Source of the DNA: Thermodesulfobacteriota bacterium
GTDB lineage: Bacteria; Desulfobacterota; Desulfobulbia; Desulfobulbales; SURF-16
Length of the DNA stretch: 21,418 nucleotides
Direction: 5' to 3'
Assembly (NCBI GenBank): GCA_039715015.1
Contig: JBDLIE010000046.1
Span: 1-21,418, forward strand
Shown: in pieces, positions 2,472-21,059 of the stretch
Numbering within the stretch: position 1 is the first letter of the stretch
Layout: every line of letters begins with the position of its first letter
Made by a program: the position numbers and the translations under genes
The notes under the pieces: model-generated
The model's input: the letters and a program-made list of their open reading frames with translations, nothing else
Database searches by the model: none
Told to the model about the DNA's origin: nothing

Positions 2472-3791
2472 TTAGAAGGTATAGCCAACAATGAGGCTCG
2501 TGACGTTTCTTCTATATTCGTAGAGGTCTTCGTTGGAGATGTTAACGGTGTGGGTATAGCGCCCAGCAAGCCTCCATTTCTTTGACAGGGTATAGCCCAG
2601 CTGCAGGGAGGCCTCGTAGCGCTCCTCGCTTCGATCTGGGCTGCTGGTGAGATCATAGACGCTGTCGCGGTAGCTGGCGGCAAGGGTTATATAAAATTTG
2701 TCAACTGGGTACAGTTCGATTCTGGCCTTTATAAGATGGCGGCGTGGTGAGGAGTCTTTAGCGCGGCGATCATTTTCTTCAAAGCTGTAGCCGGCAACCA
2801 GGCTGTGGGCACCGTGCCTTGCTGAAAATTCTGTTGTTGCCTGGTGTTGCCAGCCCTGCAGGTAATCATACTGGGAATTAAGAATATCCTGGTATTTTGC
2901 CTCGTAACGCAGGCGGACGGACAAGGCATGGCCGAGAGGTCGCTTGACCTCCAGGTTGAAAATGGGGCTTTGGGAATAGCTCGCATCATCCCATAAAACA
3001 TAGTTGTATCCTGTGCCGCCCTCAAGGTGAAATGTCCCAGCTTTTTTTCGATATTTCCCTTCCAGCCTCAAACTGCCCACGTCATATTCATTAAGTTCGG
3101 TATAGTCACGAAAGGAGAGGCTTCCCTGCAGAAATGGGCCTTCACTAACAGAGTTTCCCAAGAAAGGGCTGCGAACAAAGGTGAATATGTCTGCAAAGCT
3201 ATCCTCCTCTTCGCTGTTTAACTCCAGGTCATCACCCTCGATCATTGAAACATTATCGTCATAGCCTGATTCCAAGGCGGAATAGGAAGTCCAGCTGTCA
3301 AGCAGCCCCTGTCTGCTCAGGATCCTACTGAGAGCGGTTTTGGAAAGAAGGAGGATTTTGCTATCCTTGCTGCCGGCAGTGGCAATGGATTTTTTTAGCC
3401 AGGAGATAGCTGACCCTGAGTCACCCTGTTTTTCTGCCAGCACGGCCAGGTTATAATAGGCCAGAGCCGCCATTTTGGGGAATGTTGCGGTCTGTAGAAA
3501 GGCCTCTTTGGCCTTCTCGTAGAGCCCTAATTTATAGGCGCACACCCCGATATTATAGAACAGGGCCGGCTTATTAAGTCCTTCAGCCTGGGCCTGTTTA
3601 AAAAGGGACAGGGCCTGGGCAAAGTCGCCTTTTTTAAAAGAGGTTTGGCCTTGCTGAAAGGATGATGATGGCGAAATATTTTCTGCTCGAACGGTATGGT
3701 GGTTGATGAGTTGACAAAAAAGGAGCAGGGCGCTCCCCAAGAAAATAGGGTGGTGCTTTAAGAGCTGTATTGATGTTGTGACAAGTTGCAA
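2472..3791 (-). CDS. TPR domain plus outer-membrane beta-barrel protein
   Basis: Signal-like N-terminus, TPR motifs (ALFYNIGVCAYKLG, LAYYNLAVL), GYDDNV barrel start, amphipathic strands, terminal GYTF. Start codon uncertain. Confidence 0.8.
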   Translation of the reverse strand: MQLVTTSIQLLKHHPIFLGSALLLFCQLINHHTVRAENISPSSSFQQGQTSFKKGDFAQALSLFKQAQAEGLNKPALFYNIGVCAYKLGLYEKAKEAFLQTATFPKMAALAYYNLAVLAEKQGDSGSAISWLKKSIATAGSKDSKILLLSKTALSRILSRQGLLDSWTSYSALESGYDDNVSMIEGDDLELNSEEEDSFADIFTFVRSPFLGNSVSEGPFLQGSLSFRDYTELNEYDVGSLRLEGKYRKKAGTFHLEGGTGYNYVLWDDASYSQSPIFNLEVKRPLGHALSVRLRYEAKYQDILNSQYDYLQGWQHQATTEFSARHGAHSLVAGYSFEENDRRAKDSSPRRHLIKARIELYPVDKFYITLAASYRDSVYDLTSSPDRSEERYEASLQLGYTLSKKWRLAGRYTHTVNISNEDLYEYRRNVTSLIVGYTF

Positions 3792-3891
3792 AATAGCTTT
3801 CTTCTCTATAAAGGCTGCTTGCTTGGCGCGGGAATCCTGAGAAGCTTACAGGTTAATGAGAACTTTGCAATATTTACAAGAGGGGTGCGAC

Positions 3892-3939
3892 AAAAAGCCA
3901 TCCAGCCACGCTTGAATTGGCCGTGGCTGGCTGGCTTTT
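3892..3939 (-). terminator. Intrinsic terminator-like hairpin upstream of the TPR/barrel gene
   Basis: CCAGCCACG/CGTGGCTGG stem extended by AAAAGCCA/TGGCTTTT. Confidence 0.6.
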
Positions 3940-3952
3940 GAGGGTGGTCGTC

Positions 3953-3982
3953 TGAGGTTTTCTCTCAGCAGAGAAAACCTCA
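3953..3982. repeat. Perfect 13-bp hairpin
   Basis: TGAGGTTTTCTCT-CAGC-AGAGAAAACCTCA. Confidence 0.7.
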
Positions 3983-4013
3983 AAACAGAGTGCTGGCAAG
4001 GGGTAAGTGGGGC

Positions 4014-4415
4014 TTAGCGGCCTTTCTTTTGCCCTATTTCATCATTGATGACACCGCGTTTGGCCTCTTCGGCCTCCTGTTGCGCTTCAATGATCTCGTT
4101 GATGATCTCATTTTGAACCGTGGCAGGAGAACCCTCCTCCTGGTGGAGAGGCGAGGCATCACCGCCTTGGCGGATTCGCCGTTCATTTCTGATCTGTTCC
4201 CTGTGCATTTCCCTGACCGGCAGCTTGATGACATTGGTAATGTCGGAGGAGGAGTCAGCATCTTCGTCAAGCATTTCCATGGTGACATCAAGCTCCAGGC
4301 TATTGGCCGCCATGATAATGACATCCCCATGTAGAAAAGGACCTGCCGCATGGGAGAAAGCAGGTGCTAAAGCGAGAGCAATAAGGGCTGAACAAAAATA
4401 AATAAATTTTCTCAT
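4014..4415 (-). CDS. Secreted acidic hypothetical protein
   Basis: MRKFIYFCSALIALALAPAFSHA signal peptide; follows anti-sigma gene on the same strand; GAGG upstream. Confidence 0.75.
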   Translation of the reverse strand: MRKFIYFCSALIALALAPAFSHAAGPFLHGDVIIMAANSLELDVTMEMLDEDADSSSDITNVIKLPVREMHREQIRNERRIRQGGDASPLHQEEGSPATVQNEIINEIIEAQQEAEEAKRGVINDEIGQKKGR

Positions 4416-4453
4416 AGGAGACCTCGTCAAACCGTGCAAGTGGTGCTAACTGC

Positions 4454-5134
4454 CTAGGCTGTGTGGGGCATATAATGCCCCTTTCGGGTTAACTCGTCAT
4501 TATAAACCGTCATGACAAGGGAGAGCATTTTACTTTTATTGTCATGGCTTATGTGGGTAATGAGTTCGGCTGTTCCCCGGCTTTTAGCAACGAGGGGGAG
4601 GTTGAGCAGATTTTTGCCTTTGCGGAGGTTGGTGTTCCAGCGTATTTCCCTTTGGCCGGGAAAACCTGCCATCTCAAGCTGGGTTGGAAGCTCAATAACA
4701 ACATCGGCCTGGAAGAGGTCACGGGGGGCGCGGACTACAACCTGGACAAGGCGCTCTTCGTGAATTTTGATATTGATGGCGTGGCTGCTGCTCGGTGGCT
4801 GGACAGCTGGCGTGGTCTGGTTAACCGGAGTTGCCACCATGAGCCAGAAAGCCAAACAGGCAGCAACAGCACCTCCCCAATAGGGCATGGCCTTTTTGAT
4901 TTGTTGCTTCTTGTGACGGGCCCTGGCCGTTGCAAAAGATCGTTTAACAAAGTCCGGGTTTGGCGGCGGCACAGGCAGGCGGCGCAGGGCTTTAAGCAGC
5001 TCTTCATCGCGTTGGAACTCATTACGGCACTCAGAGCAGCTGAACAGATGCTGCTGAAGCTCTAATGTTTCCCCGGCACTGAGGGTTCTGTCCAGATAGT
5101 CATCCTTATTAATGAGTGCTTGTTGGCAATCCAT
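4454..5134 (-). CDS. Membrane-bound anti-sigma factor, zf-HC2 type
   Basis: N-terminal Cys plus HLFSCSEC (HxxxCxxC), one TM segment, periplasmic domain; directly after ECF sigma. Confidence 0.9.
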   Translation of the reverse strand: MDCQQALINKDDYLDRTLSAGETLELQQHLFSCSECRNEFQRDEELLKALRRLPVPPPNPDFVKRSFATARARHKKQQIKKAMPYWGGAVAACLAFWLMVATPVNQTTPAVQPPSSSHAINIKIHEERLVQVVVRAPRDLFQADVVIELPTQLEMAGFPGQREIRWNTNLRKGKNLLNLPLVAKSRGTAELITHISHDNKSKMLSLVMTVYNDELTRKGHYMPHTA

Positions 5135-5156
5135 AGGTTTATACCTCTAAAATCAA

Positions 5157-5183
5157 TAACGCCTACTTATCAGGAACGGTTCC
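5157..5183 (-). promoter_or_regulatory. ECF-type promoter inside the sigma gene 3' end, facing the anti-sigma gene
   Basis: GGAACC-N16-CGTTA on minus strand. Confidence 0.7.
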
Positions 5184-5732
5184 TTGGTCCAGAAAATTTC
5201 GTAATTGAACTCGGGCCCGGTGAATTCTGGATTTGAGGGTGCCCACCGGAGTGTCGAGGATTTCCTCAAGCTCGGCCAGGGTATAGCCCTCGACATAGTA
5301 GAGCAGACATAGGTGCTGCTGGTCCTGGTTTAAAGAATGTATAGCCGCTTGCAGGCGTGCCCTGGTTTCATTCTCTTCTGTGCCCTCTTCCGGCCCTGCT
5401 TTTGGGCTGGGGATGAAGTCAACAATGTCAACCTCACTGTTTTTACCTTTAACTACCAGCTGGAGAGGTGAGCGCTTATTCTTCCGTTGCTGGTCCAGGA
5501 AGGTTCGATAGAGGACCTTGGCTAACCATGGCCCCAATTTTTCTATGTCAAGCAATGTCCTCTGTTTTGGATAGAGCTTTACCAAAACGTCTTGGACCAG
5601 ATCTTCGGCGTCGTCCACATTTCCGGTAAGGCGAAATGCCAGTCGATACAGGCGCTGCATATGGGGCCGTAGAACCGATTCAAAATTCGCAGTTCGGCTG
5701 TGTGAATGTATAAGGCTAATAACTTTTTCCAT
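5163..5732 (-). CDS. ECF RNA polymerase sigma-70 family factor
   Basis: DAEDLVQDVLVK, WLAKV, and region 4 TLAELEEILDTPVGTLKSRIHRAR; start placed at ATG 5732 (GAGGG upstream). Confidence 0.93.
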   Translation of the reverse strand: MEKVISLIHSHSRTANFESVLRPHMQRLYRLAFRLTGNVDDAEDLVQDVLVKLYPKQRTLLDIEKLGPWLAKVLYRTFLDQQRKNKRSPLQLVVKGKNSEVDIVDFIPSPKAGPEEGTEENETRARLQAAIHSLNQDQQHLCLLYYVEGYTLAELEEILDTPVGTLKSRIHRARVQLRNFLDQGTVPDK

Positions 5733-5746
5733 AAAACGTACCCTCA

Positions 5747-5773
5747 TAACGTCCAAACCTGTGAGATGGTTCC
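5747..5773 (-). promoter_or_regulatory. ECF autoregulatory promoter
   Basis: GGAACC-N16-CGTTA on minus strand, same boxes and spacing as at 5157-5183. Confidence 0.75.
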
Positions 5774-7393: not shown

Positions 7394-7735
7394 ATGCAAT
7401 TTTTGACCCAGACAAGCTGTGAAGCATGTAAAATTGGAGCGCCTCTTGTTACGGATGAAGAAATTGAAGAGTTTTCCCCCCAGATTCCAGAGTGGCGCAT
7501 TGTTGAGGTGGATGGCATGCAGCGCCTTGTCCGCCGCTATAAATTTAAAAATTTTGTCCAGGCCTTGGATTTTACCAACAGGGTGGGCGAGATAGCCGAG
7601 GCTGCTGGCCACCATCCGGCCCTGCTCACTGAATGGGGCAGTGTCGAGGTCTCCTGGTGGTCCCATAAGATAAAGGGCTTACATAAAAACGATTTTATCA
7701 TGGCAGCCAAAAGCGATGAGTTGCTGGCCAGTTAA
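7394..7735 (+). CDS. phhB: Pterin-4-alpha-carbinolamine dehydratase
   Basis: CEAC N-terminus, [44 protein letters not shown]. Confidence 0.95.
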
Positions 7736-7857
7736 AGAACAACAGCCCTGGGAGCAACGGAAAAGAACCATTTTTTCTTTGACTCTTGCCAAGTGAGCAG
7801 GGCAACATAAGGGTATGGAAAGGCTATTTCAGCACATGCAAAGAAATGGTGAACAAC

Positions 7858-8199
7858 ATGCCCCTTAGACATTTTCCGCAAGGCGTGAAGGAGTTTGCCC
7901 TTCAGGCCTATTCAAGACCCAAGGATAAAAGTCAGTTGCGTGAAACCCACGTTGCCTTCACCGGCACGCCGCAAAAGCATTATTATGATGCGGACAAGGT
8001 CATCCTGGTCACTGATGCCTTCAGCAGCAATACCTTTTATTATGAATTTCTGGCCAAGGATATCTCCTTTGTCGAAGAGATGGGCACCACCGTCAATATG
8101 GAGGGTGAGGCCCTGCCCATTATGCGCCTCTGGGTGAAGAAGAAAAGTATTGGTGTCCGCTGCACGCCTTTTGTGGTGGCAGATACCTTCACCCGCTGA
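7858..8199 (+). CDS. Conserved hypothetical protein
   Basis: Globular-looking ORF (THVAFTGTPQKH, DAFSSNTFYYEF, RLWVKK, TPFVV); start at ATG 7858 after GGTGA; no catalytic motif recognised. Confidence 0.7.
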   Translation: MPLRHFPQGVKEFALQAYSRPKDKSQLRETHVAFTGTPQKHYYDADKVILVTDAFSSNTFYYEFLAKDISFVEEMGTTVNMEGEALPIMRLWVKKKSIGVRCTPFVVADTFTR

Positions 8200-8435: not shown

Positions 8436-8574
8436 TTGCAATTATGCAATCGTTTCCTCTTTGCATAATTGCAAGGGCGCAAGGCGTGCACCGTCTCGAC
8501 CGGAGATGCGATGCTGGTAACTGTTTGGAATTAAAGGTGAAGGGTGTGGGAAATGCCTGTGGCATACAAAGTGT
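8436..8574 (+). promoter_or_regulatory. Sigma54 promoter P1: paired UAS, IHF-like site, degenerate -24/-12
   Basis: TTGCA-ATTA-TGCAA 8436; TTGCA-AGGG-CGCAA 8469; extra site 8461; IHF-like 8518; TGGCAT with GG 8561-N10-GT. Confidence 0.7.
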
Positions 8575-8641
8575 ATATGGAGATATCAAAGGACAATGAA
8601 AGAAGAAGTTTAAGAGTAACCTTTGCCACAGGGGAAAGAGC

Positions 8642-9079
8642 ATGAGCCATTATCTGATTTTCTTAGCGATTATTCCTATTGCCTGTTTTCAACTTGCAAA
8701 AATGTACGCACCCTGTCGCCTGTGGCTTCTTACTGGTCTGTCAGCCGGACTGGTCATTGCTCCGGTGAGTCAGGGCCTGGTTGAATACACTCTAATTCCT
8801 GTCATCGGTGGCTGCATAGGGATTATCGGCACCATGTTTAACCTGGTCCACGGGTCGGTGGGCTATTTCTTTCTGGCTGCGCTGGGCACGTTTGAGTCGG
8901 GCACGGTCTTGAACGCCTCCGAGCTTGCCCTGATGAATGTGATCAATGCCGTTATCTGGACGACCTACTACGGTGTTGTTGGCTACAGGATGGATCTGAG
9001 GTTTTCCAGAAAGGCGGAGAGCAAATACATCGCCGCTGCCGGCGCAAAGCTCAAGCACAGCGAAGAATATTTACAATAA
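8642..9079 (+). CDS. Integral membrane hypothetical protein (paralog A)
   Basis: Several hydrophobic segments; gap-free alignment to 10209-10628. Confidence 0.85.
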   Translation: MSHYLIFLAIIPIACFQLAKMYAPCRLWLLTGLSAGLVIAPVSQGLVEYTLIPVIGGCIGIIGTMFNLVHGSVGYFFLAALGTFESGTVLNASELALMNVINAVIWTTYYGVVGYRMDLRFSRKAESKYIAAAGAKLKHSEEYLQ

Positions 9080-9170
9080 TAACAAAGGGGTGGGGCTGGT
9101 CATATTCCGACTAAATGCACAGGGTATTGGTCTGCCAGGGGGCCAGGTGCGCCCCACCTGATGACCTGGA

Positions 9171-9218
9171 AAAGCGGTTTTCTGCAGCCTGCAACAGGGT
9201 AGATAGCCGCTTTTTTTT
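9171..9218 (+). terminator. Intrinsic terminator-like hairpin
   Basis: AAAGCGGTT...AGCCGCTTT stem with T8. Confidence 0.6.
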
Positions 9219-9245
9219 GCTCACAATCTGGCTGCCGGTTCATTA

Positions 9246-9259
9246 TTGCAACTATGCAA
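9246..9259. promoter_or_regulatory. Single UAS-type palindrome upstream of the PAS-HTH gene
   Basis: TTGCA-ACTA-TGCAA; no partner site at 33 bp. Confidence 0.65.
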
Positions 9260-9364
9260 TTCAATGGCGCAGAGCGGATGACGGCTATAAAAGCGCGAGG
9301 CGCTTTGTCTATAACGCCTCTAAGCAGAACAGAATATCAAACAGGATGAGTGGGGCCACAGGTT

Positions 9365-9952
9365 ATGAACGATGAAGATTCTTATATTTCTCCTGAAGAT
9401 ATCCTGGAGAGTCTGGCTGATCCTGTATTCACAGTGGATAACACCTTAAAGATCACCTCCTTTAATAAAGGTGCTGAAAATATTTCAGGCTTATCCCGCC
9501 AGCAGGCATTGGGACAACCCTGCGATACGATCTTTCGTTCCACCCTCTGCCACCATAATTGCCCTTTAAAAAAGACCCTTGCAAAGGGCAATTCAACACT
9601 GGTGAGCGGTGTTTTTATTACCAACCACCATGGAGAGCAGGTGCCAGTGCATGTCTCGGCCGCATTGTTGCGAAATTGCAAAAACAAGGTGATTGGCGGT
9701 GTTGGCACCTTTCAGGACCTCCGCCTTCTTAATGGAGATGTGGACAGTATGGAGCAGGCTGTCCAGGCCTGTGAGGCCCAGACAATTCTAACGGCACTCC
9801 ATAAAAACAATAACAATCGGGCCGCTGCCGCCCGTGATCTGGGGATCCATAAGAGCACCTTCTTCAGGAAAATCAAAAACCTGGGCATTGACCTGCCCCA
9901 GGCCGCTGGTCGATTCCGGTCCGGCGCCTCCCCAGGTAATTCTTCCCCTTGA
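9365..9952 (+). CDS. PAS(CX8CX3C)-Fis HTH regulator lacking the AAA+ domain
   Basis: ILESLADPVFTVD...CDTIFRSTLCHHNC...GGVGTFQD joined by a short linker to EAQTILTALHKNNNNRAAAARDLGIHKSTFFRKIK. Confidence 0.88.
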   Translation: MNDEDSYISPEDILESLADPVFTVDNTLKITSFNKGAENISGLSRQQALGQPCDTIFRSTLCHHNCPLKKTLAKGNSTLVSGVFITNHHGEQVPVHVSAALLRNCKNKVIGGVGTFQDLRLLNGDVDSMEQAVQACEAQTILTALHKNNNNRAAAARDLGIHKSTFFRKIKNLGIDLPQAAGRFRSGASPGNSSP

Positions 9953-9958
9953 CCAGTG

Positions 9959-10098
9959 TTGCAATTGTGCAATTCAAGCCCTGGGGATGCATTGCAATGG
10001 CGCAACATATTCAAACCAGGGGGAGAGATGTCTTGCTGGCTAACATGATGATTTTATAGAAATTAATTGGAGAGTAAGGGTGCTGGCACACTAACTGC
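9959..10098 (+). promoter_or_regulatory. Sigma54 promoter P2: paired UAS, IHF-like site, -24/-12
   Basis: TTGCA-ATTG-TGCAA 9959; TTGCA-ATGG-CGCAA 9992; IHF-like 10041; TGGCACACTAACTGC (GG 10085). Confidence 0.85.
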
Positions 10099-10208
10099 AA
10101 ACTTATCCAGTTAACCTCTTAAGGCATAGTTTTTGTTGAAAGAGGCCCGATAACGAAAATCAATTTCGCGTTTTACGGCATAGTAACCATTTTTGAGGAG
10201 GTAAGATC

Positions 10209-10628
10209 ATGAGCCAATATTTAATCCTTTTAGCGATCATCCCGTTATCTGTTTTTAATCTGACCAAAATGTTTATGCCCGGCAGGAGGTGGCTGCTGTC
10301 AGGCCTTGCCGCCGGCTTAGTGATTGCCCCGGTGAGCATGGGGCTTATCGAATTTACCTATGTTCCCATCATCGGCAAGGCCTTGGGGCTTGTCGGTGTT
10401 GTCGGCAACCTGATCCACGGGTCTGTGGGCTATTTCTTTCTGGTCAGCTTCGGCGGCATGGAGCCTGGTGTTTTGCTGACAGCTTCCCAACTTGTCACCA
10501 TTAACCTGGTAAACGCCGCTATCTGGGGCTCTTACTATGGCATGGTTGGTCATAATATTGATGCAAAACTTGCCACAGAAGAGAAGCCGGTGGAGGTCCA
10601 CGAGGCCCTGAAGCAGAAGGCAGTTTGA
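10209..10628 (+). CDS. Integral membrane hypothetical protein (paralog B)
   Basis: GAGGAGGT RBS; shares AGLVIAPVS and HGSVGYFFL with paralog A. Confidence 0.88.
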   Translation: MSQYLILLAIIPLSVFNLTKMFMPGRRWLLSGLAAGLVIAPVSMGLIEFTYVPIIGKALGLVGVVGNLIHGSVGYFFLVSFGGMEPGVLLTASQLVTINLVNAAIWGSYYGMVGHNIDAKLATEEKPVEVHEALKQKAV

Positions 10629-10715
10629 AAAAAGACGCATTTCCCGGCCCAGCAGATGCTTGGAGCAGGAAACAGGGAAAAACAAATTTTATTCTTATAA
10701 GAAGGAGAGCGGCTC

Positions 10716-10946
10716 ATGGTGGATTTTTCAGGTAGCAAAGTGAGAAATGATCAAGCAGCCCTTGATGGCAATTCACATCGGGCGGAAATGGGCGACGACA
10801 TGGGTCTGGCAGGCATAACTGTCGTCATTGCCCTGGCCAGCTTGATAGGTTTATGGGGTCTTAGCTGTCTGGCATCTGGACTGATTAAGAGCGGTGGCAT
10901 CATCGGTCTTGGCACTTCCTGGATTTCAGCTGTCTTCGGTTTCTAG
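10716..10946 (+). CDS. Small membrane protein
   Basis: AGGAG RBS; polar N-terminus, Gly-rich TM helix (LIGLWGLSCLASGL) and amphipathic C-terminal helix. Confidence 0.75.
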   Translation: MVDFSGSKVRNDQAALDGNSHRAEMGDDMGLAGITVVIALASLIGLWGLSCLASGLIKSGGIIGLGTSWISAVFGF

Positions 10947-11169
10947 GCCTTTCGTTTTCCTAAAGTGGTTGGTGGCATACCTGGACGTGCCTGCCTACAT
11001 GGGTGATGTGGAAAGATGTCTTCCTTCCGCGTCACCCTTCGTACGTCTGGACTGGCGGCACTTTCTAAGGAGTTTCAGGAGGTGGTTTCTCTTTTCAGCC
11101 CCCTTCATATCTTCCCCTGGCAGATTGAATTTCGTAGTGCTCAAAAATGAAACACGTCAGCCATGTTGT

Positions 11170-11211
11170 GACCACGGACAGAGTTGCAGATCTGCAACTC
11201 TGTCCGTGGTC
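11170..11211. repeat. Perfect 42-bp palindrome centred on a UAS site
   Basis: GACCACGGACAGAGTTGCAGA|TCTGCAACTCTGTCCGTGGTC, no loop, no mismatch. Confidence 0.95.
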
Positions 11212-11322
11212 TATGGTTGCGCATATGCAACCCTGCTTGAGGGAGGCTGGGCCTGGTTTCGAGTTTAATTGTTTGATATTAAAGGGCTTTTGAGAAACAC
11301 ACGCAGGTGGCACACATGATGC
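11184..11322 (+). promoter_or_regulatory. Sigma54 promoter P3: paired UAS, consensus IHF site, -24/-12
   Basis: TTGCA-GATC-TGCAA 11184; TTGCG-CATA-TGCAA 11217; TATCAAACAATTA (minus, 11266-11278) fits WATCAAN4TTR; TGGCACACATGATGC (GG 11309). Confidence 0.88.
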
Positions 11323-11407
11323 AATTTATAGTCGGAGAAGACATTTTGCGACCTGTGAGAAATGAGGTTTATAACTTTTTAAAAGAGTCCGAGGAGATCA
11401 TGCAAAA

Positions 11408-12511
11408 ATGAAAAAACTCAAGAAATTGACAAGACCCATAGGCTTCTGTTTTCTTTTTGTTTTTTGGCTGTGGCCTGCAGTGGGACTGGCAGTTGATAAC
11501 TCAGAATGCCTCGACTGTCATAGCGATGAAGGGTTGACACGAGAGACACCTAACGGCGGCGATGTCCAGGAAAGTCTTTTTGTCGATGGCGACAAGTTTA
11601 ACCACTCTGTTCATCATCTCAATGATATAGGCTGTGTTGATTGCCACGCCGATATTGAAGAGTTGGACTACGATGCAGACCTCCCCCACAAAAAAGATCT
11701 GGAACAGGTGGAATGCTCATCATGCCACGGGGAAGAGGCCGAGGCCTTTGCCAACAGTGTCCACATGAAAATTCGCAGCAAGGGTATCACCATGACCTGC
11801 TACGCCTGTCACGATTATCATTATGTCAGTCACCTGGCAGCCGCCTCGGTTGCCGAGCGGGAAAATAATTTTTGCGCCAAATGCCACAACCCTTACCAGG
11901 GCCATGATTGGCTGCCCAAGAAAGCGGAACATTTTGCCTTTGTCGAATGTACGGTCTGCCATGCCCCTGAGGTGCCGCGCCACATCCATCTTAAGTTTTT
12001 CGACCTGGTCACTAATAAATATTATAAGGGCGACGAGATCCTTGAAATTTTAGGGATCAGCGATGATGAGTTTATGGCTGTCCTCGACCAAGATAAGGAC
12101 GGCACCATTGGCAGGAAAGAGTTTGAGATTCTTGAGTTCATGCTGCGCCAAAAAAATGTGCATGCCATTTTCCATGTCGAGTTGGTGGCGGAAACAGAAG
12201 CGGTGGCCCACCAGGTAAACCGGGGCGTGGCTGAACGCAGCTGTGAAAAATGCCATACTGCGGACTCCCCTTACTTTAACGCCGTGACCATAGTTCTGGC
12301 CAATGAGGATGGCAGTGTCGACCACCACCAGGTGGAGCTCTCAGTGCTTGAGAGCTACAGCCTCAGGCATTTTTACCTCTATGCCGGCACCAGGGTGAAG
12401 CTCCTTGACATGATAGGCATTGTCCTGCTTGGCGGCGCGGCCTGTGGCGTGCTGGGCCATCTCACCATCCGGATTTTGACCATGCGCCTGCGCCGTAAAA
12501 AAGACAACTAA
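11408..12511 (+). CDS. Membrane-anchored heptaheme cytochrome c with EF-hand loop (CbcA-like)
   Basis: Signal peptide; seven CxxCH (CLDCH, CVDCH, CSSCH, CYACH, CAKCH, CTVCH, CEKCH); DQDKDGTIGRKE; C-terminal His-containing TM helix. Confidence 0.92.
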   Translation: MKKLKKLTRPIGFCFLFVFWLWPAVGLAVDNSECLDCHSDEGLTRETPNGGDVQESLFVDGDKFNHSVHHLNDIGCVDCHADIEELDYDADLPHKKDLEQVECSSCHGEEAEAFANSVHMKIRSKGITMTCYACHDYHYVSHLAAASVAERENNFCAKCHNPYQGHDWLPKKAEHFAFVECTVCHAPEVPRHIHLKFFDLVTNKYYKGDEILEILGISDDEFMAVLDQDKDGTIGRKEFEILEFMLRQKNVHAIFHVELVAETEAVAHQVNRGVAERSCEKCHTADSPYFNAVTIVLANEDGSVDHHQVELSVLESYSLRHFYLYAGTRVKLLDMIGIVLLGGAACGVLGHLTIRILTMRLRRKKDN

Positions 12512-12513
12512 AC

Positions 12514-12620
12514 GTAACGGCCCAGCAGCGCCCCATCTGTGTTCGAGCCGCCTTGCTCAGCTAGAAAGCTATTGATCGCCAGCCTGCTTGAACAGATCCG
12601 GAGCACTGCAAAACCGTTAC
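12514..12620. repeat. Long imperfect intergenic hairpin (MITE/REP-like)
   Basis: GTAACGG/CCGTTAC ends; inner GCAG/CTGC and ATCTGT..TCGAGC/GCTTGAACAGAT arms. Confidence 0.55.
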
Positions 12621-12685
12621 AACTTGAGCTGTTCTTGCACCTGAATAGTTGCAACTAAATTTACATGAGAAGAGGAGGCTTAGTG

Positions 12686-13303
12686 ATGAGCGATAACATG
12701 ATATACATTCACCCGGCGCCTGTCCGGGTCTGGCACTGGATTCACGCCGCAGGTATTGTGGCGCTGGTTGTAACCGGCTTTCAAATCCGCTATGCTGAGA
12801 TGCTGGCTATTATGCCCTTAAAGGATGCGATAACTCTCCATAATTATGTGGGATTTGTGGTAATAGCCGATTATTTCGTCTGGCTGTCCTTCTATCTTGG
12901 CACGGGTAAGATCAGGATCTATTTTCCTGATCTGCGTACCTTTGTGGCCAATGCCATCGGCCAGGCAAAATATTATGGTTTTGGCATCTTCAAGGGAGAT
13001 CCCAACCCCCATGTGATGAGCCCTGAAAACAAATTCAATGCCCTCCAGCAAAAGGCCTATTTGGGGTTGATGTTTCTCCTCCTGCCGGCCCAGATGATCT
13101 CCGGCGTTTTTTTGTGGCGGGTCAAGGGCTATGCCGATTACGTCCACTTTCTGGGCGGTATCAAAATTATTGATACCATCCATGTCATCCTCTTTTTCTT
13201 TTTCGCATCGTTTCTCATTGCCCATTGCTATCTTGCCACCTTGGGCCATACGCCGCTGGCCCATTTCAAGGCCATGTTCACCGGCTATGAGGAGCACCAT
13301 TAA
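12686..13303 (+). CDS. Cytochrome b/b6-domain membrane protein (CbcB/PhsC-like)
   Basis: RVWHWIHA, LHNYVG, KFNALQQKAY, IHVIL...IAHCY heme-b His pattern; GAGGAGG RBS places start at 12686. Confidence 0.92.
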   Translation: MSDNMIYIHPAPVRVWHWIHAAGIVALVVTGFQIRYAEMLAIMPLKDAITLHNYVGFVVIADYFVWLSFYLGTGKIRIYFPDLRTFVANAIGQAKYYGFGIFKGDPNPHVMSPENKFNALQQKAYLGLMFLLLPAQMISGVFLWRVKGYADYVHFLGGIKIIDTIHVILFFFFASFLIAHCYLATLGHTPLAHFKAMFTGYEEHH

Positions 13304-13337
13304 CATCTTAATATAGGGTCGGGAGCAGAGATCCCAA

Positions 13338-13377
13338 GGGGGCATTGACCCGTATAAGTCAATGCCCCCCCTTTTTT
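13338..13377 (+). terminator. Intrinsic terminator between convergent genes
   Basis: GGGGGCATTGAC/GTCAATGCCCCC stem then T6. Confidence 0.85.
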
Positions 13378-13391
13378 AGGGTTAATTTCCC

Positions 13392-15863
13392 CTATTCTTT
13401 CTTCTTCTTTTTCCCCACCGGAAAATCGATCTGATACTTCTTCATCTTGCGCCACAGGGTGGTTTTCTCGACACCGAGATGGGCGGCGGTCTTGCCCCGG
13501 TTGCCATTAAATTTTTGGAGGGCGGCCAGGATGGTGCCGGCCTCGGCGTTGGAAAGGGGGGTGGCAGTTTCGCCGGCCATGCTGGTTAAGGGCTGCTCAT
13601 GCACTGGATCTCTGAGGCCCTCGGGCAGGCAGTCCACGTCAATCTGGCCGCCATGACAGAGGACAAAGGTGTATTCAATGATATTTTCCAGCTCCCTGAT
13701 ATTGCCGGGAAAATCATGGCGCATGAGGATATTGATCACCTCGGCTGAGGCGGATTCAATATTTTTTTGCTTGAGAGTGTTGAATTTGTGGATGAAGTGG
13801 TCAACAAGGATAGGGATATCCTCCCTTCTTGCTGACAGGGGGGGGAGAGCGATTTTGATAACGTTGAGACGAAAGAAGAGGTCCTCGCGAAAGAGTCCCT
13901 CGTCGGCCAGCTCTTTAAGGTTTTTATTGGTGGCGGCAACCACCCGCACATCAGCCTTCACGGTTGTTGTGCCGCCCAGGGGTTCATACTCTTTCTCCTG
14001 GAGAACGCGGAGAAGTTTGAGCTGCAGGGCCGGCGAAATATCACCTATCTCATCAAGAAAGATAGTCCCTCCCTCGGCCAAGGCAAAACGTCCGGGTTTG
14101 TCCGCCTTGGCCCCGGTAAAAGCCCCTTTTTTGTAGCCGAAGAGTTCGGATTCAAGCAAGGTGTCGGGCAGGGCCGCACAGTTTAAGGCAACATACGTGC
14201 CCGGCCTTTCGGTCAGGTTGTGAATGGCCTTGGCAAAAAGCTCCTTACCGGAACCGCTTGGGCCCTCGATGAGAACGGTGCTGTCGCTTTTGGCGATATT
14301 GGGCAGGATGGCGAAGATATTCTTTATCTTATGGTTCTTGCTGATGATGTCCTGGAAGCTGTAGTTGTCGGTAATCTCCTTGCGTAACTCCTCCATGGCC
14401 GAGCAGTCACGGAAGGTTTCAACGCCGCCGATGGCAACGCCATCATCGTCACGCAAGGCTGAAGTTGTGACATTAATGGGGACCAGTTGGCCGTCCTTAT
14501 TGGTGATGGTAACCTTGAGGTTGGTCACCTCTTCACCGGTCTCCATGGATTGCTTGAGGACGCAGGAGTCTTTACAGATATTGGCCTTAAAAACGTCATA
14601 ACATTTTTTGCCGATGGCATGGCGCCTCTTGAAGCCGGTGATATGTTCGGCGGCCCTGTTAAAGGAGGTGATGAGCCAGTTCTTGTCCACGGTAAAGGCG
14701 CCGTCACCGATGGAATCAAGGATGCAGTCACTCAAGGAAAGCTCCTTGCGAAGCCCCTCAATGGCCGAGGTGTCACGGAAGGTCTCCACGCCGCCGATAA
14801 TCTCCCCCTCCTCATTACGCAGCACGCAGGTGTTAACCCGGATAGGAACCTTGTCGCCTTCGATATCCTTAATGGTGACCTTGAGATCATGAACGTCAAG
14901 GCCTGTTTCCATGGATTTTTTCAGGGCGCAGGATGATTTGCAGATATCGGCCTTAAAGACCTCATGGCATTTCATGCCAATGGCCTCAGAACGGTGGACG
15001 CCGGTGATGTCTTCGGCCGCCTTGTTGAAAGAGGTAATGACCCAGTCATGGTCCACGGAAAAGGCGCCGTCTGCTATGGAGTCGAGGACGCTGTCGCTCA
15101 GAGAAATATTCTGGCGCATTTTCTCAAGGGTCGAAATATCGCGGAAGGTCTCAACGCCGCCGATAACCTCAAAGTTTTCATTCCTGAGCACAGAGGTGGT
15201 GACCATGATGGGGATCTTGTCACCCTCGATATCCTGAATAGTAACCTTGAGATTGGTAACGTCGCGTCCGGTTTCAATGGACTGCTTGAGGGCGCATGAG
15301 GACATGCAGATATCGGCCTTAAAGACCTCGTAGCATTTTTTGCCAAGGGCATCGGAGCGATGGATGCCGGTGATCTCCTCCGCCGACTTATTAAAGGAGG
15401 TGATGCGCCAGTTCTTGTCCACGGAAAAGGCGCCATCGGCAATGGACTCCAGGATGCTGTCGCTCAGGTTATTCCGGCATTGTTCAGCGCTGCCTGAATT
15501 TTCCCGGAAGGTTTCCGCCCCGCCCTTGAACTCCCCTTCTTCATCATAAAGAGCCGTGCTGTAGGCAATGACCGGGACCTCTACCTCATGGGCTATTATG
15601 GCAATATTGTGACTGACGATCTTTTCGCCAAGCTTCAACGATTGCTTGAGGGCGCATGATGATTTGCAGATATTGCTTTGAAAAACGTCATAACATTTTT
15701 GGCCCACCACATCCCAACGCTTGATGCCGGTTATCTTTTCCGCAGCCCTGTTAAAGGAGGTGATATTGAAATCTTTGTCCACCGTAAAGGCAGGGTCAAC
15801 AATGGAATTGAGGGAGCTGATCGTGAACCGGGTGTCCGGCTTCGGGAGGCTGGTGTTGTCCAT
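13392..15863 (-). CDS. Sigma54-dependent activator, 4xPAS-AAA+-HTH (OrpR-like)
   Basis: Four PAS repeats each with CX8CX3C; GPSGSGKE, ESELFGYKKGAFTGA, FLDEIGD, FPGNIREL, Fis HTH; divergent from the ORP-like operon. Confidence 0.95.
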   Translation of the reverse strand: MDNTSLPKPDTRFTISSLNSIVDPAFTVDKDFNITSFNRAAEKITGIKRWDVVGQKCYDVFQSNICKSSCALKQSLKLGEKIVSHNIAIIAHEVEVPVIAYSTALYDEEGEFKGGAETFRENSGSAEQCRNNLSDSILESIADGAFSVDKNWRITSFNKSAEEITGIHRSDALGKKCYEVFKADICMSSCALKQSIETGRDVTNLKVTIQDIEGDKIPIMVTTSVLRNENFEVIGGVETFRDISTLEKMRQNISLSDSVLDSIADGAFSVDHDWVITSFNKAAEDITGVHRSEAIGMKCHEVFKADICKSSCALKKSMETGLDVHDLKVTIKDIEGDKVPIRVNTCVLRNEEGEIIGGVETFRDTSAIEGLRKELSLSDCILDSIGDGAFTVDKNWLITSFNRAAEHITGFKRRHAIGKKCYDVFKANICKDSCVLKQSMETGEEVTNLKVTITNKDGQLVPINVTTSALRDDDGVAIGGVETFRDCSAMEELRKEITDNYSFQDIISKNHKIKNIFAILPNIAKSDSTVLIEGPSGSGKELFAKAIHNLTERPGTYVALNCAALPDTLLESELFGYKKGAFTGAKADKPGRFALAEGGTIFLDEIGDISPALQLKLLRVLQEKEYEPLGGTTTVKADVRVVAATNKNLKELADEGLFREDLFFRLNVIKIALPPLSARREDIPILVDHFIHKFNTLKQKNIESASAEVINILMRHDFPGNIRELENIIEYTFVLCHGGQIDVDCLPEGLRDPVHEQPLTSMAGETATPLSNAEAGTILAALQKFNGNRGKTAAHLGVEKTTLWRKMKKYQIDFPVGKKKKKE

Positions 15864-15973
15864 GGCGTGCGTCCTTGAGGAAAAGGTCGAAACTTGCCGG
15901 CGGAAAGACAGTGTTTGAATAAAAACCGTCGTTTCGGGCGGAGAGCAGGCAGGTAATATTCACTGACGACACC

Positions 15974-16109
15974 TTGCAACATTGCAATTAAGGGTACTGT
16001 AATGAATTGCAGGTGCGCAAGCTTAGGTTTATAGGACTCAGCCGTTGCCCGTCTAACTATCTGTAATTAAAGGAGATAATAATTGGCCCGCCGCTGGCGC
16101 ATAATGTGC
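15974..16109 (+). promoter_or_regulatory. Sigma54 promoter P4: paired UAS, IHF-like site, -24/-12
   Basis: TTGCA-ACAT-TGCAA 15974; TTGCA-GGTG-CGCAA 16007; IHF-like 16054; TGGCGCATAATGTGC (GG 16096). Confidence 0.85.
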
Positions 16110-16153
16110 AAGATAGAAAGTAGCTATTTATAAACGTTATGAGGTGAACAGAG

Positions 16154-16624
16154 ATGAGAATTGTAATTTCCAGTACAGGAGCCAATCTTAAAGCAGATGT
16201 TGATCCCCGTTTTGGCAGAGCGGCCTTCCTGCTTCTTTATGACACGGACAAAAAAGAAGTGGTGGAGGTAATCGACAATGGCGAAGGACAGGATGCCGCG
16301 CAAGGAGCAGGGATCAGCGTTGCCAGCCTCTTGGCTCAAAAAGGCGTTGCCGTGATTATAACTGGTCGGGTTGGTCCCAAGGCCATGAAGGTAGTGAGAA
16401 AGGCGGGAATCAAGGTGGTCTCCAATGCCACAGGCACGGTGGAGGGTGCCGTTTCTGGGTTTAGCGGTCAAGGTGCTTCCGGCCAGGATAATGGAGCCCA
16501 GGATGAGAGGAAGGTGCCCGGCGCTGAGTGTCGCCGTCGAAACGTCTGGCAGAAAGGCGGCGGTCCCACCAGGATGGGCCGAGGTTATGGGGGCAGAGGA
16601 CGAGGACAGGTTTCCGGAAGGTAA
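16154..16624 (+). CDS. NifB/NifX-family metal-cluster-binding protein (Orange protein-like) with Gly/Arg tail
   Basis: VDPRFGRA, GAGI, IITGRVGPKA, AGIKV, GTVEGAV; GAGGTG RBS. Confidence 0.9.
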   Translation: MRIVISSTGANLKADVDPRFGRAAFLLLYDTDKKEVVEVIDNGEGQDAAQGAGISVASLLAQKGVAVIITGRVGPKAMKVVRKAGIKVVSNATGTVEGAVSGFSGQGASGQDNGAQDERKVPGAECRRRNVWQKGGGPTRMGRGYGGRGRGQVSGR

Positions 16625-16641
16625 AGGGCGGAGGTGGGCAA

Positions 16642-17469
16642 ATGCAGATAGCTGTTGCCAGTGGTAAGGGCGGGACGGGCAAGACCACGATTTCCACCAG
16701 TCTGGCCCTGTGCGCCCAAGGCGGGGTGCAGTTTCTCGACTGTGACGTGGAGGAGCCTAATGGCCATATTTTTCTTAAGCCTGAGCTGACCGAGAGCAGC
16801 AAACACAGCGTCGCCATTCCCCGTATCGTCACAGAACAATGCTCTTACTGCGGCAAATGCCGTAATATCTGCCGCTTTAATGCCATTACCATGTTTGGTC
16901 AGACCATTATGGCCTTTTCAGAACTCTGCCACTCCTGTCTCGGCTGCTTTTTGGTGTGCGAGGAGAATGCCATTGTTCATGATTCACGGGAGGTCGGTGT
17001 TCTGGAGCAGGGGCAGGCAGGTGAGATCGCCTTTGTCCATGGCAGAATTCGGGTGGGGGAGGCCATGGCAGTTCCGCTGATTAACGAGGTAAAGAAAAAG
17101 GCGAATAAGGCAGATCTGGTTATCATTGATGCGCCTCCCGGAACCTCCTGTCCCTTTGTGGAGGCGGTATCTGGGGCAGATTTTGTCCTCCTGGTCACAG
17201 AAGCCACCCCCTTTGGTCTCCATGATTTGAAACTGGCGGTGCAGGTGTTGAGAACTTTTGCCAAGCCATGCGGGGTGCTTGTTAACCGTTCCGACCTCGG
17301 TGATGACCGGCTGGAAAAATGGTGCCAGGTGGAAAATATACCGGTTCTGCTAAAAATTCCCTTTGATCGAACCATTGCCGAAGGCTATGCCCGCGGAGAT
17401 ACCCTGCTGCAAAGCAGGCCTGATCTACGTCAGCCACTGGAAAATCTACTCCAGGAGATTGTCCAATGA
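16642..17469 (+). CDS. MinD/CobQ-like P-loop ATPase with ferredoxin insert
   Basis: MQIAVASGKGGTGKTT, DCDVEEPN, CSYCGKC..IC, CHSCLGC..VC, DAPPGTSCP; GGAGGT RBS gives start 16642. Confidence 0.93.
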   Translation: MQIAVASGKGGTGKTTISTSLALCAQGGVQFLDCDVEEPNGHIFLKPELTESSKHSVAIPRIVTEQCSYCGKCRNICRFNAITMFGQTIMAFSELCHSCLGCFLVCEENAIVHDSREVGVLEQGQAGEIAFVHGRIRVGEAMAVPLINEVKKKANKADLVIIDAPPGTSCPFVEAVSGADFVLLVTEATPFGLHDLKLAVQVLRTFAKPCGVLVNRSDLGDDRLEKWCQVENIPVLLKIPFDRTIAEGYARGDTLLQSRPDLRQPLENLLQEIVQ

Positions 17470-18404
17470 AAGAAATAGTCGTTTTAAGCGGAAAAGGCGG
17501 CACCGGCAAGACCACCCTGTTGGGATCTCTGGCCTGCCTGGCTGAAAACAAGGTGCTGGCAGATTGTGATGTCGATGCGGCAGATCTTCACCTCCTCCTG
17601 GCCCCTGAACATCGGAGCGAAAATGAGTTCCGTTCCGGGGTCAAGGCCCGGGTGGCGTCAGATAAATGTACAGGATGCGGTACCTGCCAGGAGTTATGCC
17701 AGTTTGGGGCCATTGATGTGGTCTCATGCGCTGCGGTTGACACTCTGGCCTGTGAGGGTTGTGGAGTCTGCGCCTATTTCTGCCCAGAGCAGGCCATCCA
17801 TTTGGATAAGAATCATTGCGGCACCTGGTATATCTCTGATACTGACTATGGCCCCTTAGTCCATGCCCAACTCTTTGCCGGAGAGGAAAATTCCGGCAAA
17901 CTGGTCTCTTTTGTCAAGGGGCAGGCCCGCCAGCTGGCTGAAGATAGCGGCGCCGACTTCATATTGGTTGATGGCGCACCGGGTATTGGTTGTCCGGTGA
18001 TCGCCTCCCTGTCAGGGGCCGATGCCATGGTGGCGGTGACTGAGCCGACCCTGTCGGGCTGGCACGATCTGGTCAGGGTTCTTGATCTGGCCGATCATTT
18101 CCAGGTGCAGGCCTTTGTCTGCCTCAATAAATGGGATCTCAATCCGGAAATTGCTGCTGTTGTGACAGAGCGCTGTCTGCAGAGAGGTGTTGATATTTTA
18201 GGGCGCATTCCTTTTGATCCGGCCGTGATTACTGCTCAGTTAAAGGGCCGGCCTGTGGTGCTCACCGACTCTCTGGCGGCAACGGCTCTAAGGGCAGTGT
18301 GGCCGGTTTTGCATGGGAAAGTAATCAATACTTTTTCCGAGCTGTCAGGGCCCAAGGTTGCCTTTCCCGCCCCTTCTTATCAGGGTGAAATGCGCCTCGG
18401 TTGA
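17466..18404 (+). CDS. MinD/CobQ-like P-loop ATPase with ferredoxin insert (second paralog)
   Basis: SGKGGTGKTT, DCDVDAADLHL, CTGCGTC..LC, CEGCGVC..FCP, GEENSGKLV, DGAPGIGCPV; ATGA overlap. Confidence 0.93.
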   Translation: MKEIVVLSGKGGTGKTTLLGSLACLAENKVLADCDVDAADLHLLLAPEHRSENEFRSGVKARVASDKCTGCGTCQELCQFGAIDVVSCAAVDTLACEGCGVCAYFCPEQAIHLDKNHCGTWYISDTDYGPLVHAQLFAGEENSGKLVSFVKGQARQLAEDSGADFILVDGAPGIGCPVIASLSGADAMVAVTEPTLSGWHDLVRVLDLADHFQVQAFVCLNKWDLNPEIAAVVTERCLQRGVDILGRIPFDPAVITAQLKGRPVVLTDSLAATALRAVWPVLHGKVINTFSELSGPKVAFPAPSYQGEMRLG

Positions 18405-20357: not shown

Positions 20358-21059
20358 TTAAACTTTAGTTTTCCGCCAGCCTACAGGCCGTCCACTTTTT
20401 CTGGGTTTGAGTCGTCTTCCGGTCAGTGTCTCTAGTTCTGCTTTAAATCGATCATTGCCAACGGCCATACTCTTGTGCGTGTTGGCCCTTATCTCCTCCA
20501 ACAATTCACCTTCGAGGTCATGACTAAATAACTCACGATATTTTTTCTGGCGGTCTGATAAATCTTTGCCCAATAACAGATACTCTTGGTGAGGGGTACA
20601 TAGCTCAGAAACCTTGCCCAGCGCATTTATTTGATAGCTAGACCAGCGATACTCTCCAGGGTCATCCACCATTGCTGCCCGAACAGGATTGAATTCAATA
20701 TATTTATAGAGTTCCAGGAGATAACGTTCAGCTTGAACCAGGCAAGATTTAAACCTACCCTCCCACAGGGTGCCGCTACGGCGATATTCATAGTTGAAAT
20801 ATTGCACATATCGCCGCCCTAATGACTGCATCATTTTACTAATGCCTCCCTCCTGCCGGGGAGTACACAGTAAGTGGACATGGTTGGTCATCATCACCCA
20901 GGCATGAATCTCTACCCTGTACTTTTGGGAATACTCTTTAAGCCATGCAGCATAGGCGCCGTGATCTTCGTCACAAACAAAGCAGGCTTGGCGATTGTTA
21001 CCACGCTGAATAACATGAACCGGGATGTCAGCCGGAGAAATTCTAGGAAGTCGTGCCAT
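20358..21059 (-). CDS. Y1 HUH transposase, RAYT/IS200-like
   Basis: MARLPR, HVIQRGNNRQ, MTNHVHLL (HUH), GTLWEGRFKS, YIEFNPVRA, YRWSSY. Confidence 0.92.
   Translation of the reverse strand: MARLPRISPADIPVHVIQRGNNRQACFVCDEDHGAYAAWLKEYSQKYRVEIHAWVMMTNHVHLLCTPRQEGGISKMMQSLGRRYVQYFNYEYRRSGTLWEGRFKSCLVQAERYLLELYKYIEFNPVRAAMVDDPGEYRWSSYQINALGKVSELCTPHQEYLLLGKDLSDRQKKYRELFSHDLEGELLEEIRANTHKSMAVGNDRFKAELETLTGRRLKPRKSGRPVGWRKTKV

Follow-up and report, generated by a model that had tools for sequence, protein, structure and literature searches.

A four-promoter sigma54 locus with tandem enhancers

The window analysed here is a stretch of 21,418 nucleotides from a Thermodesulfobacteriota bacterium (assembly GCA_039715015.1, contig JBDLIE010000046.1, positions 1 to 21,418). 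All coordinates refer to it, and G, L and C labels denote genomes (G000 being this genome), loci and contigs, respectively. Its central part holds a putative sigma54 regulon of four promoters, P1 to P4. In order, these precede a membrane protein gene (M1) followed by a short PAS-helix-turn-helix (HTH) regulator gene, a second membrane protein gene (M2) with a small hydrophobic protein gene (S), a CbcBA-like cytochrome pair and an orp-type unit, and the gene of a four-PAS sigma54 activator lies on the opposite strand between the last two.

Each promoter begins with a tandem pair of TTGCR-N4-YGCAA palindromes whose starts are 33 bp apart. The exact sites reported in a first-pass annotation of this DNA were all recovered, at 8436/8469 (P1, 8436..8482), 9959/9992 (P2, 9959..10005), 11184/11217 (P3, 11184..11230) and 15974/16007 (P4, 15974..16020), as were the elements placed behind them. 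Specifically, an IHF-like box on the minus strand begins 49, 49, 49 and 47 bp after the start of the second site (8518..8530, 10041..10053, 11266..11278 and 16054..16066), and a plus-strand sigma54 -24/-12 box (8560..8575, 10084..10099, 11308..11323 and 16095..16110) has its -24 GG at +92, +93, +92 and +89, that is, at 8561, 10085, 11309 and 16096. The pairs of P2 and P3 are conserved and the spacing in P1 is 32-33 bp in relatives, while the pair of P4 lies 111 bp from the start of the divergent activator gene. Besides the four pairs, single sites occur at 8461, overlapping the P1 enhancer, and at 9246 and 9668.

Exact sites number 13 in the 3.01-Mb genome and 11 of them fall in the window, where 0.014 would be expected at the rate of the rest of the genome; 2267 Markov simulations gave at most 2 sites and never more than one pair. 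A scan of the genome and its relatives, as the first-pass annotation had proposed, places all of the genome's pairs (4/4) in the window and finds pairs kept in relatives. A relaxed scan of the genome for further pairs returned only weak candidates with 3-4 mismatches, C65:10911 and C29:11541, which were left uncounted. The candidate at C65:10911 (3 mismatches, 32 bp) is followed by a sigma54-like box and a 473-aa open reading frame (ORF) without assigned function. The IHF-like boxes differ from WATCARNNNNTTR at two positions in P1, one in P2, none in P3 and two in P4, and those of P1 and P4 are weak when taken alone. Across 40 promoters of the P1-P4 type, drawn from the window and its relatives by a site pair plus a loose sigma54 box, 34 carry such a box with at most 2 mismatches at +45 to +51. 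Additionally, the genome encodes RpoN and five HU/IHF-family proteins. A sigma70 scan stayed at chance level (10 found versus 9.0 expected) and did not locate the activator's own promoter.

The tandem sites are kept beside the activator in relatives

With up to 2 mismatches allowed, the paired pattern is present in 13 of 41 genomes including this one, against 2 of 41 for a reversed-pattern control, and most pairs in relatives cluster next to the activator orthologue. P1-P4 and their genes are complete in G000, G002, G003, G004 and G010 (in the last split over two contigs), and the short contig of G007 shows P4, the orp unit and cbcB. In G005, G013, G015, G022, G024, G460 and G481, pairs precede an AAA-dead regulator (see below), M and cbcAB, and the orp unit is not linked. 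On this distribution, the conserved core of the predicted regulon is M-S-cbcAB with the dead regulator, and the orp arm belongs to it in two genera only. The layout also appears in Desulfobulbaceae or Desulfurivibrio records of a partial collection scan, which covered 15 of 64 parts and in which most of the 123 loci lack regulon genes and are chance matches or sites of other regulators. In the same scan a pair stands ahead of orp-type genes at 7 of the 123 loci, including Ignavibacteria and Fibrobacterota, which argues that the pair is a widespread site of the branch of the OrpR family to which the window activator belongs.

Two relatives differ in what the pairs flank. In G005 (L005:12386) the P4 pair is kept while the orp genes and the sigma54 box are gone, a retention hinting that the divergent activator is autoregulated. 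In L008 (G033:C149) two near-exact pairs flank an operon of multiheme c, 4Fe-4S and membrane-subunit genes with a split activator gene alongside, and this respiratory-looking operon is a possible third target type.

The activator is a paralogue of OrpR

The activator gene (13392..15863, minus strand), classified by domain search, motifs and tree, encodes four PAS domains, an AAA+ domain with intact Walker A, Walker B and GAFTGA motifs, and an HTH with the helix EKTTLWRK. All four PAS domains carry C-x-[DE]-x6-C-x3-C (C57, C177, C299 and C421), matching the triad C52/C61/C65 and the acidic residue 54 described for OrpR, which is active at -425 mV and inactive at -280 mV (PMC8359166). The likeness to OrpR (DVU2106) and the orp system of Desulfovibrio vulgaris Hildenborough thus covers the C-x8-C-x3-C plus acidic PAS, the AAA+ domain and the HTH (PMC8359166), and extends to palindromes in tandem, an IHF box placed between the enhancer and the sigma54 box, and ORP-type and Orp3/4-type targets (PMC8359166, PMC3897727). 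Unlike OrpR, the window activator belongs to a paralogous clade, has four PAS domains, reads EKTTLWRK in place of SKDTLRR and has GAFTGA in place of the GAFTDA given for DVU2106 (PMC4641369). Its predicted site spans 14 bp (TTGCR-N4-YGCAA) versus the 17 bp of GGGCGYRTTTTGCGCCC for OrpR, and the OrpR regulon reported from chromatin immunoprecipitation comprises two orp operons only, whereas the regulon predicted here adds cbcBA, membrane proteins and a dead regulator.

The phylogenetic reference for OrpR is a stand-in, L164, rather than DVU2106 itself; it was found through the published OrpR site in 401 genomes, 2 of which matched, and combines an orp cluster with a neighbouring activator that has C52/E54/C61/C65 and GAFTDA. 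The window activator is 50% identical to it. In an AAA+-only tree of 55 proteins, L164 groups with C7:59011-61428 of this genome (support 99/95), and the window activator falls in a separate 16-member clade (support 100/95); placing the window activator and L164 in one clade, a group named post hoc from the tree, is rejected (p-AU 0.001). By this tree, the window activator is an OrpR paralogue and the protein on C7 is the OrpR orthologue. The published OrpR site GGGCGYRTTTTGCGCCC has no exact match genome-wide and none at up to 2 mismatches on the window's contig.

What best indicates the protein that reads the pairs is the covariation between recognition helix and site, in which related loci are not independent. 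Pairs are present at 10 of 11 loci whose activator has an xKTTLWRK helix (loci fetched by activator similarity, with L008 left out for its split gene and the duplicates L062, L063, L089, L132 and L075 counted once), and at 0 of 9 loci with the OrpR-type helix SKDTLRRK. OrpR-like palindromes, a looser motif that also occurs in 9 of 40 other loci, accompany 8 of the 9 SKDTLRRK loci. Of the 15 activators that a motif search of the genome recovered, the window activator alone has an xKTTLWRK-type helix. We therefore regard binding of the window activator to the pairs as highly likely from these patterns. Another activator could drive P1-P4, for instance the OrpR orthologue on C7, which also has Cys-triad PAS domains and whose namesake drives orp genes in Desulfovibrio; the absence of pairs at every locus with its type of helix, together with the TGGCGCA-N3-TGCGCCA sites and sigma54 boxes that surround it instead, makes this very improbable.

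The C7 orthologue itself has three Cys-PAS domains, GAFTDA and SKDTLRRK. Within C7:52000-66000, TGGCGCA-N3-TGCGCCA occurs at 56072, 56245 and 64000, with sigma54 boxes at 55924 (-) and 64156 (+), and its neighbours are what we take to be cytochrome c, 4Fe-4S, NrfD-like and MerR-like genes. In G000, the OrpR orthologue appears to be rewired away from the orp genes. Two orthologues of the window activator (L013:9014-11020 and L171:7057-9333) have an extra receiver-like domain C-terminal to the HTH.

Taken together, the proposal of the first-pass annotation that one redox sensor serves four units keeps its core, namely a single sigma54 enhancer type before all four, an adjacent activator with OrpR-type Cys-triad PAS domains, and the helix/site covariation; what has to be amended is the identity of the sensor, an OrpR paralogue and not OrpR.

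A CbcBA-like cytochrome pair and an unnamed membrane family

The genes behind P3 encode a CbcA-like cytochrome c (11408..12511, +; assigned by sequence and alignment) and a CbcB-like b-type cytochrome of PF01292 (12686..13303, +; assigned by domain search and alignment), and an intrinsic terminator (13338..13369, +; z -5.1) separates cbcB from the convergent activator gene. Seven CXXCH motifs and a C-terminal membrane anchor mark the CbcA-like protein, and His351 of this anchor is invariant in 34 sequences. In the CbcB-like protein, His17, His52, His166 and His180 are invariant in 56 sequences, and NF011582 ('thiosulfate reductase-like') matches at E 1e-38, below its cut-off. CbcB has homologues named from Desulfogranum and Thiovibrio. 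In Geobacter sulfurreducens, BccR induces a sigma54-dependent cbcBA operon, which includes two hypothetical genes and a response regulator, as the potential drops, and CbcBA is required below -0.21 V (bioRxiv 10.1101/2021.04.15.440034). The window shares with that system a seven-heme CbcA with a His-bearing C-terminal anchor, a 'thiosulfate-reductase-like' cytochrome b, a sigma54 promoter, upstream small hypothetical proteins with a partial regulator, and a sigma54 activator nearby. It differs in having three promoters where the Geobacter layout has one, and four PAS domains where BccR has a receiver domain; the BccR type (receiver in L022) lies outside the Cys-PAS group.

Compared through the Geobacter-layout loci L022-L026 and not through GSU0593/GSU0594 themselves, CbcB is 41-45% and CbcA 25-26% identical, and PDB entry 28PB ('Cytochrome c' by name) matches the CbcA of L022 at 1e-150 and that of the window at 6e-8. 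The small proteins of L022-L026 have no BLAST match to M or S. Use of the same site by BccR is rejected, as L022-L026 are without pairs. CbcBA has also been mapped in Desulfobulbia and Seep-SRB2, a presence shared here at class level, with reverse electron flow proposed for Seep-SRB2 (PMC10553843); the available text of that paper names no regulator, site or partner genes for the Desulfobulbia CbcBA. The bc-type, quinol-linked module of the first-pass annotation is thus to be amended to a CbcBA-like pair. Induction of such a pair at low potential through sigma54, alongside two hypothetical proteins, was already published for Geobacter (bioRxiv 10.1101/2021.04.15.440034), and the presence of CbcBA in Desulfobulbia was likewise already mapped (PMC10553843).

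P1 and P2 precede two related membrane proteins. M1 (8642..9079, +), whose dN (nonsynonymous substitution rate) is well below its dS (synonymous rate), and M2 (10209..10628, +), a four-helix protein with a near-invariant His70, are 54% identical and fall outside every Pfam and NCBIfam family; a Pfam search with 19 distant homologues gave two matches, both below cut-off. The family comprises 145 representatives at 50% clustering. The predicted fold of M2 has four helices (pLDDT 88.8), and Foldseek returned no match to it at E<=0.001 (best Z 4.9). His70 is present in 53 of 53 close sequences and in at least 90% of 64 wider ones. S (10716..10946, +) is a small hydrophobic protein of 76 aa that belongs to unnamed Thermodesulfobacteriota clusters and is conserved among relatives. 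In a set of 151 genomes, whose kin are not independent, cbcB occurs in 30 of the 31 with M and in 23 of the 120 without it, and cbc genes are present at 15 of 20 M loci. From this co-occurrence we tentatively suggest that M may be an accessory membrane subunit of CbcBA, and it is possibly heme-binding.

The orp arm is lineage-restricted

The unit behind P4 is a reduced orp operon consisting of one NifX-domain protein and two ferredoxin-ATPases. The first gene (16154..16624, +) encodes an ORP-like, Orp8-type NifB/NifX-domain protein (PF02579) with a Gly/Arg-rich tail. It is followed by two Orp3/Orp4-type MinD-like ATPases: one with two [4Fe-4S] motifs (16642..17469, +; 43% identical to the orp ATPase of L164) and a second (17466..18404, +; 50%). 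Orp3, Orp4 and Orp8 are described in PMC6345978. Two further components are missing from the operon: for Orp9/MrpORP, NF041136 stays below cut-off genome-wide, and for Orp5 a search with DUF5320 gave no match. We take DUF5320 to be the Orp5 family.

For the co-regulation of ORP with cbcBA inferred in the first-pass annotation, a common enhancer is seen in six genomes of two genera (G000, G002, G003, G004, G007 and G010). Of the 21 orp units examined, 10 lack a pair and have a TTATGAGCATATGCACAWAA-like palindrome, five of them beside cbcBA in another family and five unlinked in this one. In L182, L183, L189, L212, L213 and L200-L204 the TTATGAGCATATGCACAWAA palindrome lies just 5' of the orp unit, often with a sigma70-like -35, which suggests a second regulator for orp units of this type. 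The general functional context for ORP proteins that had been expected is therefore not established, and co-regulation is lineage-restricted.

A stronger reading would have ORP and its ATPases share one pathway with CbcBA, for example in metal-sulfur cluster supply, so that the regulon would reveal the job of ORP. In the six genomes the orp unit follows a pair and has the activator and cbcB as neighbours, and in a second family it adjoins cbcBA, either divergently (L182, L183, L212, L213) or in upstream tandem (L189); this repeated physical linkage is suggestive. We nevertheless hold the shared pathway to be unlikely. The orp promoter of that second family has the other palindrome and no pair; G013, G015, G021, G022 and G024 carry the orp unit without linkage, and G005 and G006 (86% and 93% complete) yielded no ATPase. 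Additionally, Ignavibacteria, Fibrobacterota and Desulfobacteraceae have orp-type operons behind this pair, and the DNA retrieved for them contains no cbcBA; CbcBA itself has hemes and lacks an Fe-S motif.

An AAA-less regulator within the regulon

The first-pass list of regulon members left out a gene that lies within the regulon. This mini regulator (9350..9952, +; likely start 9365) combines a Cys-triad PAS domain with a Fis-type HTH (HKSTFFRK) and has no AAA+ domain. A terminator-like hairpin with a U run (9168..9216, +; z -3.2; kept in L002 and L003) separates it from M1, and a single enhancer-type palindrome stands 5' of it (9246..9259), with single sites in the same intergenic region of L003 and L006. 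Its dN of 0.24-0.30 against a dS of 1.2-1.7 (3 unsaturated of 5 comparisons) indicates that the gene is under purifying selection. In the tree, the mini regulator descends not from the window activator but from a sister clade with the helix HKST(L/F)FRK, which forms a series from an intact activator (L176) through GAFTGA-less forms (L013, L171, L177, L193, L215) to AAA-deleted ones, with triad and helix kept throughout; helix and C-terminal motif are invariant over the AAA-dead and AAA-deleted forms. In seven genomes (G005, G013, G015, G022, G024, G460 and G481) the dead form lies directly 3' of a pair and a sigma54 box.

The simplest role for a protein that would bind DNA, sense, fail to activate and be induced by the circuit is that of a brake, and we put the chance that the mini PAS-HTH protein competes for the enhancers in feedback at just short of even. 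Three observations tell against such a brake. The conserved hairpin lies between P1-M1 and the mini gene, so P1 may not drive the mini gene in this genome; the sites near the intact HKSTLFRK sisters are mostly variants and not exact pairs, which leaves competition for shared sites unproven; and the PAS domain of the window protein is without the acidic +2 residue. It is quite conceivable, if somewhat doubtful, that the protein is no brake on these enhancers but acts elsewhere as an independent redox-sensing repressor or co-factor, or that it is a relic in slow decay. To the hairpin and the variant sites, this alternative can add the origin of the protein in the sister clade and its faster evolution relative to M2 or cbcB. 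Set against it are the low dN, the invariant helix and C-terminal motif, the dead form behind a pair and sigma54 box in seven genomes, and an intact sister in L184 that has near-exact sites 33 bp apart.

A predicted redox-gated circuit

Taken together, we propose, and consider probable, that the adjacent four-PAS OrpR paralogue uses the four pairs to switch on cbcBA, M, S and, in this lineage, orp, probably at low potential. The sequence itself shows the promoter geometry and its conservation, the Cys triads, the intact AAA+ motifs, the paralogy to OrpR and the CbcBA-type architecture; the steps of the circuit are inferences. The reduced, cluster-loaded activator would bind each tandem pair, and IHF would loop the bound activator to sigma54 polymerase; IHF-induced bending of the DNA that separates enhancer and promoter is likely. 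cbcAB, M, S and orp would then be expressed at low potential, as in OrpR-orp and BccR-cbcBA, oxidation of the clusters would shut the activator off, and the mini protein would damp the output of the circuit. By analogy with OrpR, the triads may well bind [4Fe-4S] clusters whose oxidised form inhibits the ATPase, and induction at low potential, where Geobacter needs CbcBA, is modestly favoured.

Besides the orp units with the other palindrome, three points weigh against this circuit. The -12 element of P1 is GT and not GC, giving a non-canonical GG-N10-GT box, although five orthologous P1 promoters (L002, L003, L005, L006, L169) share its GTA. Of 20 further cbcB loci in the order, 14 have neither a pair nor a Cys-PAS activator, which argues that the cbcBA regulator is exchangeable. 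Lastly, electron flow through CbcBA in sulfate reducers may be towards quinone reduction (PMC10553843), which makes Geobacter a looser analogy.

The same activator and regulon could also answer another signal, such as Fe-S or sulfide supply or oxidative damage, or be switched on by oxidation, with targets serving repair or quinone reduction. For OrpR, the sign of the response has been established in a single organism (PMC8359166), reverse flow through CbcBA has been proposed for Seep-SRB2 (PMC10553843), and the PAS copy number among activator orthologues varies from 1 to 4. As none of the four PAS domains has lost its triad or acidic residue, and as both characterised models, OrpR-orp and BccR-cbcBA, are on at low potential, we judge another signal improbable. 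More speculative still, and quite unlikely as a whole, is a self-limiting switch for anaerobic respiration in which four stacked Fe-S PAS domains set a sharp potential threshold for expressing CbcBA, the sister activator has decayed stepwise into a redox-sensing, dominant-negative pseudo-activator that the same circuit induces, M is a third, heme-binding CbcBA subunit, and the ORP-ATPases load or repair the sensor clusters.

The first-pass annotation knew of no description of this combination. None of the joined regulon was found, but both halves, OrpR-type sensing and sigma54-controlled CbcBA, are known. The literature searched, whose scope excluded most subscription papers and RegPrecise, likewise yielded no description of the site motif, the joining of CbcBA and OrpR, the paralogue split or the pseudo-activator series, and three supplements of PMC12545173 gave no match. 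What appears to be new here is an Fe-S-type PAS sensor in place of the receiver-type BccR, a conserved AAA-less sister regulator at the end of a decay series, and a His-bearing membrane family without a name that is tied to cbcBA. These bear on the way in which anaerobes perceive the redox potential that gates low-energy respiration. For the receiver domain of BccR, the available text of the Geobacter paper (bioRxiv 10.1101/2021.04.15.440034) names no input, and with the same cytochrome module placed behind a one-component sensor of Fe-S type, whose site is predicted, the sensing question becomes testable in vitro and with a heterologous reporter. Additionally, the OrpR family splits into clades by a helix-to-site code, with targets exchanged between paralogues, and offers a natural series that passes in graded steps from an activator to a pseudo-activator without AAA+. 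The M family gains a first functional context.

Other genes in the window

Upstream of P1, window positions 7394-8199 hold a pterin-4a-carbinolamine dehydratase gene and a gene for an unnamed protein, which are linked 5' of P1 in relatives as well; the unnamed protein is 81-87% identical in relatives and has no Pfam match. Apart from the tRNA, no Rfam family was found in the window. The flanks (180-2395 and 20358-21059) carry what are presumably small toxin-antitoxin-like gene pairs next to the tRNA-Arg gene (2319-2395) and a REP-associated transposase-like ORF. The segment at 2472-5756 encodes an ECF sigma factor, a zinc-finger anti-sigma factor, a small exported protein and a TPR/beta-barrel protein, and is conserved in L002 and L005.

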